IMG/VR virus record: IMGVR_UViG_3300030109_001698
Coordinates: 1-55,693 of that record
Length of the DNA: 55,693 nucleotides
Strand: one strand, 5' to 3'
DNA from: a virus
Taxonomy: Duplodnaviria > Caudoviricetes
Within the stretch, counting starts at the first letter, position 1. Each line of letters begins with the position of its first letter. The translations under genes and the position numbers were made by a program. Positions 8,285 to 45,097 of the stretch are shown piece after piece. A model generated the notes under the pieces. That model was not told the DNA's origin. It was given only the letters and a program-made list of their open reading frames with translations, and did no database searches.

Positions 8285-9853
8285 ATGGAATATAATCTAC
8301 CTAGCGAGATTGTCAAAGACTTAACTTTTGGCAACGACGCTAAAAGCAAAATTATTATGGGTGTAGACAAATTAACAAAAGCTGTTAAATCTACACTAGG
8401 AGCCTCAGGAAAGTGTGTAATATATGAAGACGCTCGAGGCAACCCGGTCATAACAAAAGACGGAGTTACAGTAGCGGAATCTGTAGTCTTACTTGACCCG
8501 GTTGAAAATATGGGAGCTACTTTAATAAAGGAAGCTGCTAGAAATACAGTGAGAGAAGCAGGTGACGGTACCACAACAGCTACCGTCCTTGCTGAATCAT
8601 TAATAAAAGAAATTAATAATGGTAATTGGAAAAACGATACTGTTAGAGAAATAAAAGAAGGAATTACGTCTGGATTAAATAAAGTTAATGATTATTTAGA
8701 TAGTGTAGCTATAAAAGTCGAAGGTGATATGTTACAAGATGTAAGTTCTATCTCTTGTAATAATGATAAAGACTTAGGAAAAACTATATCAGAAGCTTAT
8801 GAAAAAGTAGGGAAAGACGGTGTTGTTCTGATGGAAGAATCAGAGACAGAAAGCACTTACGTTGAAGTAGTTGACGGCGTGCAAATCGAATCTGGACTTA
8901 CATCACCTCATTTTATAACCGATAATGAAAAACAAAGAACAATACTAGAAAACCCACTAATTCTTATAGTGGCATCGGAAATCCCAAACGTTAGAAAAAT
9001 ACAAAATATACTAGAATTTGTTATAAAGAACAATAAATCATTGTTAATTGTAGCACAAGTGTCTCAACAAGTTAAATCTGCGCTTTTAATGAACAAAGTT
9101 AAAGGTAATATTAAAGTAAATATTATAGATTTACCTGGTTTTGGTCCTACAAAGCAAGATACTATCAAAGATTTAGCAATTTTAACTGGCGCAGAGGTAA
9201 TAAACGAAGAATTAGGTGATGATTTAGATGGAATTTCGTTAAATGTACTTGGAGAAGCTGAAAAAGCTGTTACAGATGACAAAAACACGGTAATTACACT
9301 TGAAAATACAGTACAAGACGTTAAAGAACGAATAAAAGAAGTTAAAAAACTACATAAAAAAGAAAAAAATGGCTTTTTTAAGAAGTTTTTAGAGCAAAGA
9401 ATAGCTATGTTATCAGGAAGCGTTGGAATAATACGTGTAGGTGCTGGTTCTAAGATAGAATTAAAAGAAAAAAAAGATAGAGTTGAAGACGCTATCTACG
9501 CTACAAAGGCCGCGTTAAAAGAAGGTATTGTACCTGGTGGGGGCGTTGCTTTGCTTAACGCATCTCAACACATAAGACCTGAAAACGCGGGTGAAGAAAT
9601 ATTGTTAAACGCAATTAGATCACCATTTGAGACAATACTTTCTAATGCCGGTATAGAGCAAATTGGTCCTAGACCAAATAAAGGCATAGGAATCGATGTT
9701 GTTACAGGTGAAAGTGTAGATATGGTAAAAGCTGGAGTAATAGATCCCGTGCTTGTTACTAAAACAGCACTTAAAAATTCCGTTTCTGTTGTAACTACTA
9801 TTATATCCGCTGATTGTATAATTTCAAATATTAGGATCAATGAAGGCAGTTAA
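8285..9853 (+). CDS. groEL: Chaperonin GroEL (Cpn60)
   Basis: ITKDGVTVA, AGDGTTTATVLA, PGFG, ELKEKKDRVEDA, GIVPGGGVAL; no GGM tail. Confidence 0.97.
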   Translation: MEYNLPSEIVKDLTFGNDAKSKIIMGVDKLTKAVKSTLGASGKCVIYEDARGNPVITKDGVTVAESVVLLDPVENMGATLIKEAARNTVREAGDGTTTATVLAESLIKEINNGNWKNDTVREIKEGITSGLNKVNDYLDSVAIKVEGDMLQDVSSISCNNDKDLGKTISEAYEKVGKDGVVLMEESETESTYVEVVDGVQIESGLTSPHFITDNEKQRTILENPLILIVASEIPNVRKIQNILEFVIKNNKSLLIVAQVSQQVKSALLMNKVKGNIKVNIIDLPGFGPTKQDTIKDLAILTGAEVINEELGDDLDGISLNVLGEAEKAVTDDKNTVITLENTVQDVKERIKEVKKLHKKEKNGFFKKFLEQRIAMLSGSVGIIRVGAGSKIELKEKKDRVEDAIYATKAALKEGIVPGGGVALLNASQHIRPENAGEEILLNAIRSPFETILSNAGIEQIGPRPNKGIGIDVVTGESVDMVKAGVIDPVLVTKTALKNSVSVVTTIISADCIISNIRINEGS

Positions 9854-32785: not shown

Positions 32786-33676
32786 ATGAAATATACAGAC
32801 TTTAAAAATAAAAGAAGATTAGAAGAGAATACAAAAACCTCTCCTAATAAATTTATTAGTTTGCTTTTTGGAGGTAAGAAACGAAGAAGAGAACAAAGAG
32901 CGGCTAATGAAGATCATCAGTATTGGATGACGCAATGGGATAATCAAAAAATGACAAACCCTTATGCGGGTATGAAAAATCCTTATGCTGACATGGAGAA
33001 TGTATATGAAGATACTAAAGTTAATTTACAAGCCGCTGATTATGCTAGAGAGCAATCTCAGCAAAATATGGCTAATATAATGAATAATATGTCCGCAGCG
33101 GCTGGGTCTTCTGGTGTTGCTGGTTTAGCTCAAGTGTTAGCTAATCAAGGAGTACAACAAGCTAGACAGCAATCTATTGATATAGGAAAACAAGAGCAGG
33201 CCAATGAATTAAGAGCAAGAGCTGAAGCTGGTAGAATAGATCAGTTAACTAGAACACAGGAATCTAAAATAGATTTAGCAGAAAGAAAAGGAGAGGCTAT
33301 GGTAGAAAGGTTTGATTTTGCTAAAGTTGACAAGCAGTTGCAATTTGCGCAAGATAGAAAAAAATATGCCGACGCTGCTAGAGATCAAGCAAGAGCATCG
33401 AGAGATTCTTTTTTAAGTAGTGCTGTTAGTGCTGCAATACCTCTTATTGCTTCAGACGTTAGGTTAAAAGAAAATGTAAAACGTACAGGAACTTCAAGAT
33501 CTGGAATACCTATTTATAATTTTAATTATATAGGTAGTAAACGAAAATATTCTGGAACTACAGCTCAAGATTTATTAAAACTAGGTAGAAAAGACGCTGT
33601 AGGAATTATGGACAATGGTTATTATGGTGTAAATTATGATAAAATTGATGTTCAAAGAACAAAAAAAAGTAATTAA
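32786..33676 (+). CDS. Putative ejection/pilot protein with C-terminal peptidase S74-like domain
   Basis: Gln/Ala coiled coil; SDVRLKEN...IYNFNY...GTTAQD...VNYDKI. Confidence 0.7.
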   Translation: MKYTDFKNKRRLEENTKTSPNKFISLLFGGKKRRREQRAANEDHQYWMTQWDNQKMTNPYAGMKNPYADMENVYEDTKVNLQAADYAREQSQQNMANIMNNMSAAAGSSGVAGLAQVLANQGVQQARQQSIDIGKQEQANELRARAEAGRIDQLTRTQESKIDLAERKGEAMVERFDFAKVDKQLQFAQDRKKYADAARDQARASRDSFLSSAVSAAIPLIASDVRLKENVKRTGTSRSGIPIYNFNYIGSKRKYSGTTAQDLLKLGRKDAVGIMDNGYYGVNYDKIDVQRTKKSN

Positions 33677-37960: not shown

Positions 37961-40900
37961 ATGGCTAAAGGCGCTCCTTATAGAATAAAAATAAAAAATA
38001 AACCTACTAGAGTTTTTCAATCCGAACAGGAAATGAAAGACGCTTTAAGAAACGATCCTGAATTAAGAGACCAGCTTAAAAACAACGAGTATACAATCGA
38101 GACGGATAAGGACGGCCAGTATGTAGTTCCAGAATCATCTAAAATGGTGATGTATGAGACTATAATAATGTTAGAGGATAAAAAAAAGAAAAAGAAAAAA
38201 GAAAAAGAGGTAGAAATTAAGCCAGAAGAAACAAAAGTAGAGGTTAAGCCAGAAGAAACAACTACAGAAGAAGTAACTACCGATCCTGATCAAGCTTACG
38301 AAGAAGCTTACCCAGAAGAAAAAACAGTTATAAAAACAGATCCAGAAAGCGGTGCACAAGAAGTTGTTTTAACAGAAAAAAATAAAGAGCAAGAAAAAGA
38401 AGACTTTACTGATTTTATGCAAATAGGTAAAGAAACAGATCCTGTAACTCAAGCTATGCCAAAGTTTGGTTTATTTGGTAAGCAAATTGACCAAGAAAGA
38501 GTTTACAACTATTGGGAAAACAAGTTGCAGGACATGACAATAAAAAACGAGGAAGAAGTTCTTGATAGAGCTATAGCTGAAGAAATGGAGTTAGTTATGG
38601 AGATGGATAGTAAACTAGCGGAAACTGTAGAGAGTTATGAAGATAAAATAAAAAAACTTACAGATGAAAAAGAAGGACTTGAAGACGAAAAGAAACAAAT
38701 AAAAATTCAGAAACAAATAGATAAACTACAAACTAAAAAGAACGAAGTTTTAGAACCTGTTAGAAAAAAAATAAAAGATAAAAAACAAGTAGATATTTTT
38801 AATGAAAGACTTGCTAGAGTAGAAGAAATATCGAAACAAATATTTGGTGAGCAGTTTGAGTTTGATATCGCGGAGACTGGTGAAGAGTACGTAGAAAAGT
38901 TTGAATTAGATTTAATAAGACAAGTTGAGGAGTTAGATGTTTTGATAAACGAAACTACTGATCCAAAAAAGAAAAATGAGTTATACGAACAAAGAAGAGC
39001 TATTCAAAACGAGTTAAATGAACTTGAAGGTTATTTTCTTAACGAAAAAGGAGAATCAAAATTTAACGAAGCAAAAAGAGAAAACAAATTAAAACAGTTA
39101 AAAGAAAAAACACATGGCAACATGAGTATTGATGGTATGAAAGCTGTTATTAATGTCGCAGCTTCGTTATCAGAAGGAGGAAATATAAACGTTGCTGCTC
39201 ATGAGTTTTTACACAAGTTACTTTTGAATACCATTAGAAATAATGATAATATAAGAATTGTATTAGGATCAAATTTACATAAATATATAGCTAAAATCGA
39301 TCCTAACTTGGTTCAAAATAGTGATTTTAGAAGACGTTTAGTTTCTTACGGTAACAATATAGAACTTATAAATGAATTAGTAGGACGGTTAAACGAAGCT
39401 AGACAAGAGGGAAATACAGAATTAGCTAAAAAGCTAGAAAAACAAAGAGTAAAATTAGAAAGTAGCTTTGAAAACGGTTCTCAAGCTGAAGAAGTTTTAA
39501 CGTTGTTTTCAGACGCTATATACTATAACGAAGTAACATTTAATGAAAATCTTTATACTAAACTAGGTGATATGTTTAGGCGTATATTTAGATCTTTTGG
39601 TGTTACCGCTAAATGGGCTAACCCTAGAGACGTTTATAATTTTATAAGAGATTACAACAATACTATTGAAACGGGTAGAGGTGTTGCTGCTTTAATAAAA
39701 GAAGGTAGAGAGGGTGTGACATTAAAAGGTGATATAAAACAACAAATAGATATAGAATCTGGAGACGCGCCTAAAAAACGTAGACGTAAAAAAAGGTTTA
39801 CAATATTTCAATCTAAATCAGACGCAGAATCCGTAAACAATATATATCAAGAAAAAGGTAAAGATGGTGCTTTTGATATTGCAGAGGAGTACCGTGGTAT
39901 GGCAAACAAAATATATGATAGATATGTTTCGCAACTACCTAGAGATTTACAAGCTTGGATTAAGCAGCAAGATAATTTTAGAGAAGACTTAATTAACGGT
40001 ATATTATTTGCTAGTTATAAGTTTATTAACGAAGGAAACGCTAACAGAAGTGTTGTTGGTATGGTTCAAAATGAATTTGTTGAAGCTAGACAGACTTATG
40101 GTAATTTAGCCGCTTATATAAATAAGTTTATATCATTAAGAGCAATACAAGAGTTTAAAGATAATCTACCACAAGAAGCTAAACTACCTGAACCAACTGA
40201 GCCAACTGAAACAAAGCCTGAGGAGCAAGTAAGAAAAGGTAAAATAGCACTAAAAGAATTAAAACAAGAAGAAACACAAGAAGATGTAAAAAATATTGTT
40301 CGTACAAGCGGTGTAAAACTTCCTGCGGAACCAAGTTATAAAGATGTTAAAAATTTAATAACTAGTCACGATGGGGCTAAAAAATCAAAACGTATTCCTA
40401 CTGGTGAGTTGTTTCCAGTTTTAGAAAAAATATGTGAAGATTTATTTGGTGACGCTAGTATAGCCCTAAGATTAGTTAGAGAAGTAGATCTTACTAAAAG
40501 CCAAAGAGCTGCAATTCAAGATTATATACGTAGAAAACATATAGAGCTTATTACCTATGTAATACCTGAAGGTACTTCAAAAGAAGGTAAGGCTACTGGC
40601 GCGGCAAACACTAAGTTAGGTGTACTTTATACAGAAGGCGCTAGAACAAAAACAGGGCCAGGATTAAAAGAGCAAAAGAAACTACATATAGATCCAGCGT
40701 TTTTGTTAGAGCAAGCTGGTATGGTTAAGGGACAACCTACTATAACTACCACTAAAGTTGATCCGTTTTTAAGATCAATGGCTATTCAAATAGGTGTTAT
40801 AGCCTCTAATCAAGCTATAAGACAAGAAAAAGAATATCTTAATCTTACGGAGCTACAAGTTATTAGACTAAAAGATGGTAAGCCTAAATTAGCTTATTCT

Positions 40901-43900
40901 CAAGCAGCTAATGAAAATGTTTCTTGGATAAAACAACAGTTAGACAAAGGAGACTTTGATTCTATTAACAAAATAAATAAATTATTAGGTAATAAAAAAC
41001 TTATTTTAGACCCATCAAATCCAAATCATATAACGCAAATGGAGTATTTTGCAACTGATGTGTTAGCAAAATATTTACCTTGGGAGTTTGTAAACGCTGC
41101 TAGTTTTGGTGTTGGAACAAAAAGAAATACTGGTCAGTTTTTTACAGCTGAAGGAGGTGCTGAAGCAGGTACTAGAATAAAGCTTCAAAATAAAGTTAAA
41201 AAATACCAATCAAAAAATCCTTTAAATCTTACGGAAAAACAGATAAGATCTGTAAGGTTAGCTATTAGATCAAAAAGAGGTTATGGCAAGGGTGGTTGGT
41301 ATGATATGCACACTATAAAAACTGTAAGAGGTGAAGTTAAAAATAGAAGTTTTACTTCAGACTATTATCAAGAGGTAATAAAAGATCATAACGAGGGCGT
41401 TGAAATTATTTTAAACGCATTACAAGATATAATCAACATAGACAACGGTAAATATCTACCTGAAATAGCGGCTATGTTTAAAAGCCAAGCGTATGCGACT
41501 GATCATTTTATAAGACAAATGGCAATACCTAAAGGTAGAGAACAAGGAATAGGAGTTAACAATACTTATAGTGAACACTTTTTTCCATCTGGCAAAATGA
41601 GTGAATTAATACTTAGGGCTTTAATTAATAATCAAATTAATGATTTAATACCTTTTATGCAAGATAGTTATTACCAAATTGGTTTAACTTCTGTTACAAA
41701 TAAGAAAATTGACAATCTTTACAAAGAAGGTTTCCCTAAAGAATATTATGATGTTATTAATGAAAAACTTAAAGAAGGGTTTAGTAATTTACCAGATCCA
41801 ATAATTAGATACGCTCATTCTAATATTAATTTAAATAAAATAACGTTAAATAATAATAACACATTAACTCAAAACTATGGTTTAGCTTACGCAGAAACTA
41901 ATAGTTCTTTTGAACTTGTAGCCGTTGTAAATACTTTACTTCAAGAGTTTTCTTTAGGACAAATATCACAAGAAAAAGCTATAAATGTTTTACAGTCAAC
42001 GTTAAAAATATCTTATTCAAAAAATAGTAACAAAGAAAAGATATTGGATCTAGCTATTCAAAACGCAAGAGCTAATTATAATAATCCTAAAGGTATGAGT
42101 ACTTTTGATTTTGACGAAACGTTGATTGATAAAGGGGACAATTTTATTATAGCTACAAAAGACAATAAAACTATTAAAATAAGTAGTGGGCAATGGCCTG
42201 TTCAAGGTCCTGAATTAGCTAAGCAAGGTTATAAGTTTGATTTTTCAGACTTTATTAACGTTAGAGGTGGTATTGAGGGTCCTTTGTTAGAAAAAATGAG
42301 AAACCAAATAAAGAAGTTTGGAACTCAAAATGTTTTTGTACTAACAGCTAGACCATCTCAATCAGCGCCAGCAATACACGAGTGGTTAAAAACAAGAGGT
42401 ATTAATATACCTTATAAAAACATAACTGGATTAGGTAACAGTACTGGCGAAGCAAAGGCAGAGTGGATGCTTGAAAAGTTTGCAGAGGGGTATAATGATA
42501 TGTATTTTGTTGATGATGCTTTGTCAAATGTAAAAGCTGTTAAGAACGTGTTAGAACAGCTAGATATTAAATCTAAAGTTGTACAAGTAAAAATAAACTA
42601 TAGTAAAGAAGCTAGTAAAAGATTAAATGAAATAATAGAACAAAGTACAGGTGTTGATGGTAAGAAAATATTTTCTGAGGCGCAAGCTAAACTAAGGGGT
42701 GATAAATTTAAAGTTAGAGACATAGTACCTCCTTCAGCACAGGACTTTCTTGGTTTACTATATAATATGTTACCTAAGGGCAAACAAGGTGAGGAAGCAA
42801 TGGAGTACTTTAAGAAAACATTAATAGATCCGTTTGCTAGAGGCGTAAACGAATTAAACACGGCTAAGCAAAGAGCTGCTACAGAGTTTGCTGCTTTGCT
42901 TAAGACTTTTCCAGATGTTAAATCTGATTTAAAAAGAAAATTGAAAAATTTTGATGGTGTACCTAAACATATTGGTAATTATAAAATTGATCACGCTGTT
43001 AGAGTTTATTTATGGAACAAAGCTGGTTATGAAGTGCCAGGTTTATCAAAAAGAGATTTAAATGAATTAGTTGACTTTGTAAAGCAAGATGAAGAGCTTA
43101 GAGCTTTTGCTAATGCGGTTGGTAATATATCTAAAAACGAAAAAGGATATGCTGAGCCAGGTGAGTATTGGTTAGTAGAAAACATACAAGCTGACTTGCT
43201 TAGTGATGGAGCCATCGGAGAGGTTAGAGGAAAGTATCTTACTGAATGGCAAAATAATGTTGATTTAATGTTTACGCCGGAAAACATGCGTAAGTTAAAA
43301 GCTATATACGGCAGTAAGTATGTAGAAGCCTTACAAGATATACTTTACCGTATGAAAACAGGTAGAAACAGACCTAGCGGTACTAATAGATTATCAAACA
43401 TATATATGAACTGGGTAAATAATTCTGTTGGCGCTATCATGTTCTTTAACATACGTTCAGCTGTGTTACAAACTATATCTTCTGTCAACTACATTAATTG
43501 GACGGATAACAACCCGTTAAAAGCTGGACTTGCTTTAGCTAATCAAAAACAATTTTGGAAAGATTTTGTATACATATTTAATTCTGATATGTTAAAACAA
43601 AGAAGAGCTGGTAATAGAAGAGGTGTTAATGAGTCTGAATTGCTAAACGCTGTTATAGGTAGTAACAACCCAATTAAAGCTTCTATAGCTTGGTTATTAA
43701 ATAAAGGTTTTTTACCTACGCAAATTGCGGATAGTTTTGCTATTGCATCTGGTGGGGCTACTTTTTATAGAAATAGAGTTAACACTTATTTAAAGCAAGG
43801 CATGTCTCAACAGGAAGCAGAGCAAAAAGCTTGGTTAGATTTTCAAGAGGTTACAGAGGTGTCACAGCAATCAGCAAGACCTGATTTAATATCGCAGCAA

Positions 43901-45097
43901 CAAGCTAATCCATTGGGTAGATTAATATTAGCCTTTGCAAACACACCTATGCAATATGGCCGTATAATGAATAAAGCATTTAGAGATATTATAAATCGTA
44001 GAGGCGATACTAAAACACATGTTTCTAAAATAGTTTACTATGGTGTAGTACAAAGTGTAATTTTTACAAGTTTACAATCAGCTATATTTGCAGCCTTAGG
44101 AGAGGGAGACGAAGAGTTGCTCGACAAAAAGAAAGATAGAATGTTTAATGGTATTATAGATTCTTGGTTAACAACGTTTGGCTATGGTGGTAAAGCTATT
44201 AGCGCGTTAAAAAATACCTTGATGGAATATAAAAAGCAAGACCTGAAAGATACTGATGACGATTATTTCTCACGATCTGATCATGCTTATACCATACTAC
44301 AAGCGTTAAGTTTTTCTCCTCCTATTGGGGCAAAACTTCGTAAAATATATCAATCTACACAAACAAGAATATTTAATAGAGATATTATTAAAGAAAGAGG
44401 ATTTACTTTAGACAATCCAGTATGGGGAGCTGTTGGTCACGTTATAGAAGGTGTAACTAATATACCGCTTGGTAGATTATCTAATAAAATGTTAAACTTA
44501 GACAATGCTTTAGATACAAGAAACGAAAGTTGGAAAAGAATAGCTTTAATAATGGGTTGGAACACTTGGGACTTAGGCATAAAAGATCCTGATTTACAAG
44601 CTTTAGGAGAAGATATAAAAGAAAGAAAGAAGCAAGAAAAGAAAATGCAAAATGAAAAAGAAAAAGCTGAAAAACAAAGGGAGAAGTTAAGAGAAAAATA
44701 TCCTGACAAAACAGATGAGCAAATTGATGAAACTGTAACTACTGAAAAGAAAATAAAACAAATTTTTGATTTAAACAAAAGAGAACAAGTAAAAATAATA
44801 GAAGGTTTAAACTTAAATCCAAAAGATTATCCTAAGGAACAGGATAGAGTAGATATAATAATGGAAAGTTACAATGAAGATTCTAAAAAAATAGATTCTA
44901 CTTTAACAGCTATAGAAAACTACGTGCCATCAGAATCAGAACAAAGATCTATAGATTTATTTAAAATGAACAAAAAAGATCAAATAAATATGTTAATGCA
45001 ACTAGGTTTAAATAGTAAAGCTATAAAAAAACTTAAGTATGAAGAGGATAGAGTAAATAAAATATTACAATTAGAAGAAAAAGAAAAAAGTAAATAA
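37961..45097 (+). CDS. Giant multidomain (polyvalent) virion protein: zincin, sigma-region-2-like, HAD phosphatase, C-terminal helical domain
   Basis: HEFLH (res 414) with EEVL; EDLING...LAAYINKFISLRA; FDFDETL, LTAR, K, FVDD. Confidence 0.8.
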   Translation: MAKGAPYRIKIKNKPTRVFQSEQEMKDALRNDPELRDQLKNNEYTIETDKDGQYVVPESSKMVMYETIIMLEDKKKKKKKEKEVEIKPEETKVEVKPEETTTEEVTTDPDQAYEEAYPEEKTVIKTDPESGAQEVVLTEKNKEQEKEDFTDFMQIGKETDPVTQAMPKFGLFGKQIDQERVYNYWENKLQDMTIKNEEEVLDRAIAEEMELVMEMDSKLAETVESYEDKIKKLTDEKEGLEDEKKQIKIQKQIDKLQTKKNEVLEPVRKKIKDKKQVDIFNERLARVEEISKQIFGEQFEFDIAETGEEYVEKFELDLIRQVEELDVLINETTDPKKKNELYEQRRAIQNELNELEGYFLNEKGESKFNEAKRENKLKQLKEKTHGNMSIDGMKAVINVAASLSEGGNINVAAHEFLHKLLLNTIRNNDNIRIVLGSNLHKYIAKIDPNLVQNSDFRRRLVSYGNNIELINELVGRLNEARQEGNTELAKKLEKQRVKLESSFENGSQAEEVLTLFSDAIYYNEVTFNENLYTKLGDMFRRIFRSFGVTAKWANPRDVYNFIRDYNNTIETGRGVAALIKEGREGVTLKGDIKQQIDIESGDAPKKRRRKKRFTIFQSKSDAESVNNIYQEKGKDGAFDIAEEYRGMANKIYDRYVSQLPRDLQAWIKQQDNFREDLINGILFASYKFINEGNANRSVVGMVQNEFVEARQTYGNLAAYINKFISLRAIQEFKDNLPQEAKLPEPTEPTETKPEEQVRKGKIALKELKQEETQEDVKNIVRTSGVKLPAEPSYKDVKNLITSHDGAKKSKRIPTGELFPVLEKICEDLFGDASIALRLVREVDLTKSQRAAIQDYIRRKHIELITYVIPEGTSKEGKATGAANTKLGVLYTEGARTKTGPGLKEQKKLHIDPAFLLEQAGMVKGQPTITTTKVDPFLRSMAIQIGVIASNQAIRQEKEYLNLTELQVIRLKDGKPKLAYSQAANENVSWIKQQLDKGDFDSINKINKLLGNKKLILDPSNPNHITQMEYFATDVLAKYLPWEFVNAASFGVGTKRNTGQFFTAEGGAEAGTRIKLQNKVKKYQSKNPLNLTEKQIRSVRLAIRSKRGYGKGGWYDMHTIKTVRGEVKNRSFTSDYYQEVIKDHNEGVEIILNALQDIINIDNGKYLPEIAAMFKSQAYATDHFIRQMAIPKGREQGIGVNNTYSEHFFPSGKMSELILRALINNQINDLIPFMQDSYYQIGLTSVTNKKIDNLYKEGFPKEYYDVINEKLKEGFSNLPDPIIRYAHSNINLNKITLNNNNTLTQNYGLAYAETNSSFELVAVVNTLLQEFSLGQISQEKAINVLQSTLKISYSKNSNKEKILDLAIQNARANYNNPKGMSTFDFDETLIDKGDNFIIATKDNKTIKISSGQWPVQGPELAKQGYKFDFSDFINVRGGIEGPLLEKMRNQIKKFGTQNVFVLTARPSQSAPAIHEWLKTRGINIPYKNITGLGNSTGEAKAEWMLEKFAEGYNDMYFVDDALSNVKAVKNVLEQLDIKSKVVQVKINYSKEASKRLNEIIEQSTGVDGKKIFSEAQAKLRGDKFKVRDIVPPSAQDFLGLLYNMLPKGKQGEEAMEYFKKTLIDPFARGVNELNTAKQRAATEFAALLKTFPDVKSDLKRKLKNFDGVPKHIGNYKIDHAVRVYLWNKAGYEVPGLSKRDLNELVDFVKQDEELRAFANAVGNISKNEKGYAEPGEYWLVENIQADLLSDGAIGEVRGKYLTEWQNNVDLMFTPENMRKLKAIYGSKYVEALQDILYRMKTGRNRPSGTNRLSNIYMNWVNNSVGAIMFFNIRSAVLQTISSVNYINWTDNNPLKAGLALANQKQFWKDFVYIFNSDMLKQRRAGNRRGVNESELLNAVIGSNNPIKASIAWLLNKGFLPTQIADSFAIASGGATFYRNRVNTYLKQGMSQQEAEQKAWLDFQEVTEVSQQSARPDLISQQQANPLGRLILAFANTPMQYGRIMNKAFRDIINRRGDTKTHVSKIVYYGVVQSVIFTSLQSAIFAALGEGDEELLDKKKDRMFNGIIDSWLTTFGYGGKAISALKNTLMEYKKQDLKDTDDDYFSRSDHAYTILQALSFSPPIGAKLRKIYQSTQTRIFNRDIIKERGFTLDNPVWGAVGHVIEGVTNIPLGRLSNKMLNLDNALDTRNESWKRIALIMGWNTWDLGIKDPDLQALGEDIKERKKQEKKMQNEKEKAEKQREKLREKYPDKTDEQIDETVTTEKKIKQIFDLNKREQVKIIEGLNLNPKDYPKEQDRVDIIMESYNEDSKKIDSTLTAIENYVPSESEQRSIDLFKMNKKDQINMLMQLGLNSKAIKKLKYEEDRVNKILQLEEKEKSK

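Follow-up and report, generated by a model that had tools for sequence, protein, structure and literature searches.

The locus considered here raises the question of whether a giant phage protein that carries its own zincin-like module works in the host as one chain or is cut into separate pieces. The window, which is the whole of IMG/VR record IMGVR_UViG_3300030109_001698 (Caudoviricetes; 55,693 bases, completeness 94%, G+C about 32%), encodes a 2378-residue multi-module protein, P0001. The original prediction described P0001 as a polyprotein with domains punctuated by YSK-type motifs, which a built-in zincin would cut after injection to give about five effectors. On the sequence evidence, P0001 is best explained as a multi-module ('polyvalent') cargo protein that a marine crAss-like podophage packs into its virion and delivers to the host. 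Because the protein is modular, bears the same short motif at the ends of its modules and has a zincin-like module adjoining them, cutting into separate pieces is suggested. The complete chain of reasoning, in which the junction motifs are processing sites cut in cis by the zincin, is tentative: quite possible, and short of probable.

P0001 is a mosaic of conserved and exchangeable modules

A scan of IMG/VR gave 259 relatives. The 80 loci retained from these have open reading frames (ORFs) of 949 to >3233 residues, many of them cut at a locus edge. BLASTP of these 80 relatives against P0001 gave rise to stepwise coverage. Residues 1–175 are covered by a single relative, residues 400–600 (module Z) by 31–42, residues 600–975 (module S) by 22–29, residues 976–1350 (module V) by 9–25, and residues 1375–2200 (the HAD module and module C) by 77–80; coverage drops again beyond residue 2200. 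The ends of high-scoring segment pairs pile up at residues 570–619 (19 ends) and 980–989 (14), and their starts at residues 1350–1379 (51). In relatives with a different module V, homology ends exactly at the motif that closes module S (site 2, below).

The predicted order of modules is an N-terminal coil, a zincin-like HExxH...E module (Z), a helical module (S), a partly swappable module (V), a HAD phosphatase and a conserved C core (Table 1). Whole-protein searches of P0001 against Pfam and PHROGs gave almost no matches, and sequence and profile searches of the PDB with the whole protein and with every module gave none below E 0.1. Pfam matches in a wider set (120 listed relatives) include Zeta_toxin/AAA_33 kinases, phage lysozyme and DUF5763. 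P0001 is modular, as originally predicted: the stepwise coverage, the breakpoints of the segment pairs and the swapped modules point to several unrelated domains whose combinations vary among relatives, as is characteristic of a polyvalent protein.

A family-wide motif recurs at module ends

The YSK-type strings of P0001 are local forms of a motif shared across the family, [IVL]-x-[FY]-S-[KR]. The ORF and every string named in the original prediction are present, the positions given there marking the S/K end of each motif string; the four motif strings are referred to here as sites 1 to 4. In a logo pooled over three sites, positions −2 to +2 read I/V/L, K/Q/M, F/Y, S and K/R in turn, and position +3 holds a residue that is small or polar. 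Within the six-frame ORFs of at least 100 residues in the window, the pattern [KT][ILV].[YFQ]S[KQ] has four matches, all four in P0001. The pattern K[IL].YS[KQ] is observed three times against about 0.011 expected in 2378 residues, by composition arithmetic for a motif defined post hoc.

Column counts for each site were taken from alignment A2. At site 2, the end of module S, 43 of 49 rows have F/Y, 45 have S and 36 have K/R. Site 4, the end of the HAD module, has F in 53/73 rows, S in 71/73 and K/R in 48/71, and an extra F-S about 22 residues beyond it is also conserved (F/Y in 66 and S in 70 of 74 rows). At site 1, in the linker between Z and S, S is kept in 25 and K/R in 33 of 41 rows, and in a relative of 62% identity the site is the canonical LVFSK. 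Ahead of the HAD module, [FY]S[KRQ] lies at most 62 residues upstream of DxDxT in 40 of 81 proteins, compared with a background of 9.8%, and its positions cluster at −10, −22 and −33 relative to the HAD motif. The motif is kept at module ends in dozens of relatives, domain-swap junctions included, and in one relative with extra modules (P0005) xIQFSK bounds those modules.

Homology breakpoints and hot spots of insertion and deletion (indels) coincide with three of the four sites. The 25 residues after sites 1, 2 and 3 carry 10.5, 15.2 and 9.9 inserted residues per row, against a mean of 5.8. In three sequence sets, [ILVM].[FY]S[KR] occurs 101, 127 and 156 times, compared with 29, 42 and 34 in shuffles and 10, 17 and 18 in reverse order, an enrichment over shuffles of 3–4.5 fold in counts that are inflated by shared ancestry.

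The motif serine is encoded by AGY in 34/34 cases at site 4 and by TCN (42) or AGY (25) at the other sites. The use of both serine codon families points to selection at the level of the protein, and a DNA-level recombination signal was therefore rejected as the cause of the motif. Short forms that start at the motif ('MMFSK', 'MFSK') are indistinguishable from gene calls at contig ends and were not used as evidence.

Module Z carries an invariant HExxH...E signature

The residues H414, E415, H418 and E511 do not vary among 43 sequences of module Z, which confirms the built-in signature of HExxH and a downstream Glu originally read from HEFLH and EEVL (residue 510, position 39488); a second EEVL at residue 198 is unrelated. 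Of the 45 long rows of alignment A2, 43 have HExxH in register, and HE..H is present in 119 of 121 relatives. The profile of module Z matches 1589 representative clusters at E<=0.001 among 1.84 billion proteins, many of them from ocean metagenomes. No Pfam family is consistent across all members of the module. In a control, the HExxH region of the N4 virion RNA polymerase (vRNAP) and gp65 of Cellulophaga phage phi14:2, both accepted phage zincins, likewise matched no Pfam peptidase family, so the silence of Pfam on module Z is uninformative.

Proposed processing by the built-in zincin, and its alternatives

The protease that most likely would act at the junction motifs is the built-in zincin. 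It would cut at [IVL]-x-[FY]-S-[KR] and so separate the C core from about four pieces N-terminal to it. The scissile bond would lie just before F/Y, where zincin specificity leads one to expect a cut. The count of about five effectors in the original prediction is one we do not retain: it includes the universally conserved C core, which we take to be the packaging or ejection part of P0001.

Several observations weigh against such cleavage, in addition to the shared ancestry behind the motif counts. TIFQSK, predicted as a YSK-type motif, does stand at its junction, but is off-pattern in P0001 (F-Q-S-K). Site 3 shows no column conservation (S in 11/58 rows), and site 1 is weak in the wider set of proteins found with the Z profile, where [FY]S[KRQ] follows Z in 19/103 against a background of 11.7%. 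Site 4 has no inserted residues in the following 25, and both of its flanks are conserved and indel-free. No junction motif stands at the point where homologues of the upstream ORF are fused to homologues of P0001. The best peptidase-family match of module Z in Pfam is Peptidase_M78 at E=0.07, and hhalign of Z covers just the HExxH helix, with a probability of 4% for the N4 vRNAP HExxH region and 0.7% for phi14:2 gp65. N4 vRNAP, its HExxH domain included, is packaged uncleaved according to PMC5512222.

The last of these points, together with the position of site 4 between two conserved stretches, would fit a protein that works uncut, in which the motifs are a recurring end-cap or docking element. 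Such an element might be a terminal strand with a basic residue for packing on the next module, might bind the capsid interior, the portal or a chaperonin, or might help the chain to unfold in order and thread through the tail. The motif of site 2 closes a longer conserved block, DG[KM]Sxx[ML]FSK, and the phage encodes its own GroEL-like chaperonin. However, one and the same motif of five residues comes after modules that are unrelated (Z, S, V, HAD and extra inserts) and shifts within linkers (to the −10, −22 and −33 positions given above), which is typical of a short linear motif with one common partner and not of a fold element, and the indel hot spots start immediately past three of the sites. 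We consider an uncut protein somewhat unlikely.

Alternatively, the motifs might be cut by another protease, of phage head maturation or of the host, and the HExxH module might attack, for example, host targets or the cell wall. In giant phages the prohead protease trims many ejected head proteins at a short consensus (SPN3US; PMC5694885, PMC7411985, PMC10052503), and a preprint on phi14:2 offers peptidoglycan digestion as an alternative role of the gp65 zincin (10.1101/2020.03.07.982082). Against this, a scan of 24 ORFs besides P0001 (smaller ORFs lay outside it) found no protease family by PHROGs and/or Pfam, the sole matches being the chaperonin and, weakly, the Peptidase_S74 chaperone. The motif is found in no other virion protein of the window, and the HExxH module is kept in the 119 of 121 relatives noted above. 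Processing by a second protease is unlikely on these grounds.

A protease-free route would be self-cleavage at the bond between F/Y and S through a serine N-to-O acyl shift, as in the autoproteolysis of Nup98, PIDD and the FIIND of NLRP1/CARD8. Of the motif's residues, the serine is the most strongly conserved (45/49 and 71/73 rows), and known autoproteolytic sites are HFS or SFS, cut before the serine (PMC3210808). However, the known systems need one specific upstream fold, and the HFS sites also a conserved His before the Phe. Here the upstream modules are mutually unrelated and K, Q or M stands at position −1 in place of His, and we regard an acyl shift as very improbable.

The HAD, S, V and C modules

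Seven HAD residues (D1383, D1385, T1387, T1462, K1499, D1518 and D1519) are invariant in 67 sequences. They make up HAD motifs I–IV, which span residues 1383–1519 of P0001 and are bracketed by KISYSK and KINYSK, as originally predicted. TIGR01509 is matched by 44 of the 67 members below its cut-off (best E 6.7e-6), P0001 itself scoring 19.1 bits against a cut-off of 29.4, and a PHROG polynucleotide kinase matches P0001 at E 0.0039. In the environmental relative P0005 (3140 residues), a Zeta_toxin/AAA_33-type P-loop kinase at residues 1490–1853 is nested in the HAD module directly after motif I, which gives a kinase-phosphatase pair.

TIFQSK and KLAYSQ do bracket a conserved module, residues 620–975, but the label 'sigma-like' attached to it is not borne out. 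Sigma70_r2 has no Pfam match in the record at E<=10, and hhalign of the module S alignment against 30 bacterial sigma factors gave a probability of 1.1% over 34 columns. Against Pfam, 46 members of module S gave no consistent family and no sigma family; stray matches were to HTH_60, Ribosomal_S7 and MCR_beta_N, one each (three members at most of the 46). The 'HNH-like' label of module V fails in the same way: 49 sequences of this module match no HNH family at E<=0.01 (0/49) and no consistent family. The histidine of EHxxP, H1206, is nonetheless nearly invariant, as is R1283, and the EHxxP...RYxN block is conserved even in relatives unlinked by BLAST.

Module C has a mean column identity of 44% (78 sequences). 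Its sole cultured-phage relative in a search of a phage collection is part of gp74 of Tenacibaculum phage Gundel_1, a podovirus of a marine flavobacterium. Gp74 (2482 residues) is annotated as a 'structural protein', shares part of the C core (residues 1930–2069, 28.5% identity, E 4e-6) and has an HExxH; it differs in having no HAD motif and no strict junction motif, and the rest of the protein is unrelated. We infer that P0001 is packaged in the virion from the position of its gene in the structural block and from the 'structural protein' label of this relative. Gp74 (L082) also gives a weak GNAT acetyltransferase signal at residues 896–966 (E 0.0018), with HEFGH at residue 1337, and may likewise be a multi-module cargo protein, in this case of a flavobacterial podovirus. 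Many relatives (P0286, P0317, P0319, P0321, P0338, P0345 and P0011) end in a short Cys-rich tail of the C..C....C.H type, absent from P0001; that of P0011 is DUF5763.

Table 1. Features of P0001 and of other genes discussed, with positions in the window
Feature	Position	Strand	Residues of P0001	Details
P0001, multi-module protein ORF	37961..45097	+	1–2378	ATG start; end coordinate includes the stop codon
N region	37961..39112	+	1–384	small N-terminal piece, coil; K/E-rich low-complexity stretches at 46–121 and 197–293; common to few relatives
Module Z, zincin-like	39113..39799	+	385–613	HEFLH at residue 414 (39200–39214); E511 at 39491–39493
Site 1, TIFQSK	39800..39817	+	614–619	Z/S linker; off-pattern variant of the junction motif
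Module S	39818..40885	+	620–975	two conserved sub-blocks; P/E-rich, indel-prone linker at 736–751
Site 2, KLAYSQ	40886..40903	+	976–981	end of module S; family consensus DG[KM]Sxx[ML]FSK
Module V	40904..42004	+	982–1348	variable front, conserved back; EHFFP at residue 1205 (41573–41587)
Site 3, KISYSK	42005..42022	+	1349–1354	pre-HAD linker
HAD-type phosphatase module	42023..42589	+	1355–1543	DFDET at residue 1383 (42107–42121); T1462; K1499; DD at 42512–42517
Site 4, KINYSK	42590..42607	+	1544–1549	end of HAD; family consensus VQAK[IV]xFSK
Module C	42608..44605	+	1550–2215	universally conserved core; one hydrophobic helix at 2024–2047
Extra conserved F-S, KIFSEA	42665..42682	+	1569–1574	about 22 residues past site 4; bounds a short conserved spacer
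C-terminal tail	44606..45094	+	2216–2378	K/E-rich; common to few relatives
Upstream ORF, 1149 residues	34510..37959	+		stops with TAA, one base ahead of the ATG of P0001
GroEL-like chaperonin	8285..9853	+		Cpn60_TCP1
296-residue ORF	32786..33676	+		weak Peptidase_S74 signal

P0001 lies in the slot of the virion RNA polymerase block

We assign the window to a crAss-like phage because it carries crAss-type genes for the large terminase (TerL), the portal, virion structural proteins matched by PHROGs and a 2118-residue muzzle protein, which matches PF25729 crAss_MUZ_C (43.6 bits against a cut-off of 27). Downstream of the genes for the muzzle and small tail proteins come a 1149-residue ORF and then P0001. 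In phi14:2 the slot after the tail and muzzle genes holds g065–g067, of which g066 is the virion RNA polymerase. P0001 occupies this slot of the crAss-like virion RNA polymerase block, and no DFDxD-type polymerase motif was found in a D.D.D scan of the 18 largest ORFs of the window; the three D.D.D strings in these ORFs are DTDDD (P0001, residue 2097), DVDLD (the muzzle ORF) and DIDSD (a 487-residue ORF). The record in which the scan of these 18 ORFs found no such motif is rated 94% complete.

The possible consequences of cleavage can be set out for this position. After ejection the zincin would cut just before the F/Y of [IVL]-x-[FY]-S-[KR], freeing early take-over enzymes (the HAD phosphatase and, in relatives, kinases and lysozyme) together with the conserved helical module S. 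The latter may replace the virion polymerase and redirect the host transcription machinery in its stead. As a whole, this fuller scenario is doubtful.

In six relatives (L020, L021, L036, L052, L054 and L066) a homologue of the upstream ORF is fused in frame to the P0001 homologue, so the local gene is the split form of a protein of >3100 residues. Frameshifting or read-through from the upstream ORF into P0001 was considered and rejected: the junction is a plain TAA, one base and ATG, and the local fold is no stabler than shuffles. The upstream ORF gives a weak signal for LPD14, a polyvalent-protein domain (E 0.0021, below cut-off). A scan for promoters and terminators gave hits at chance level only.

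Two other genes are listed in Table 1. The GroEL-like chaperonin matches Cpn60_TCP1 at E 1.6e-53, and its close relatives (49–78% identity) lie on 12 contigs in assorted metagenome-assembled genomes, probably phage contigs. The Peptidase_S74 (endosialidase chaperone) signal of the 296-residue ORF, at E 0.0078, is in keeping with a tail fibre that has a self-cleaving chaperone at its C terminus.

Comparison with known systems

The general idea of processing by a zincin has already been put forward in print, for polyvalent proteins (PMC5512222) and for gp65–67 of crAss-like phages (10.1101/2020.03.07.982082). For the former, processing by their own zincin (MPTase) domain was proposed (Iyer et al., 2017). 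Like P0001, polyvalent proteins are giant phage proteins that join unrelated enzymatic modules and have a central module with HExxH and a downstream Glu; the Zeta_toxin/AAA_33 kinases and lysozyme swapped in by relatives of P0001, and the LPD14 signal of the upstream ORF, add to the likeness. The difference is that, outside the HExxH helix, no sequence relation of module Z to the MPTase region of N4 is detectable. In PMC5512222, 'HAD' occurs three times as a whole word, each time as the English verb, and 'sigma' and 'linker' do not occur.

In phi14:2, gp65–67 (an RNA polymerase-associated zincin protein, the virion RNA polymerase and a structural protein) are in the virion, gp65 carries a zincin-like domain, and in some crAss-like phages the three form one fused polyprotein that is 'likely cleaved' (10.1101/2020.03.07.982082). 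The block resembles the P0001 locus in its slot, in its split and fused forms and in including an HExxH protein. It differs in that the 18 window ORFs hold no DFDxD-type motif and P0001 has no similarity to gp65. The strict junction motif is also rare there (0–1 matches each in gp65, gp66 and gp67), as it is in N4 gp50 and Gundel_1 gp74 (0–2 matches each across all these proteins). In gp66 of phi14:2 (L126), encoded beside the zincin gene gp65, the string ENILFSQNN lies about 20 residues before the stop; as a single string it could be chance.

In MARTX toxins, effector domains are freed by a built-in cysteine protease that cuts the linkers between domains. The analogy to P0001 is one of function, namely delivery as a single polypeptide, effector modules that can be swapped, a protease within the chain and short sites in linkers. 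MARTX toxins differ in the class of protease (cysteine), in the site rule and in being secreted by bacteria, and share no known homology with P0001. SPN3US gp245, from the phage of the papers cited above, is reported to be packed in the virion, to enter the host and to be processed at a short motif, as is proposed here for P0001. Its processing, however, is by a separate head-maturation enzyme that acts on many head proteins, whereas the P0001 motif occurs in this one protein alone and the scanned ORFs yielded no such protease.

Significance for crAss-like phages

The general concept, zincin autoprocessing of polyvalent and crAss-like virion proteins, has already been proposed (2017–2020). The available text of the literature examined (supplements lay outside its scope, and the motif string itself was not searched) contained neither a cleavage consensus nor a description of this HAD-bearing family. 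What look new are the candidate site consensus and the form of the block in which no RNA polymerase motif was found. A large family now supplies a concrete consensus, conserved at module junctions, for candidate processing sites. If these are indeed cut, phage polyvalent proteins would gain in this motif their first defined cleavage code. This crAss-like group appears to deliver enzymes other than RNA polymerase, which bears on how infection starts.

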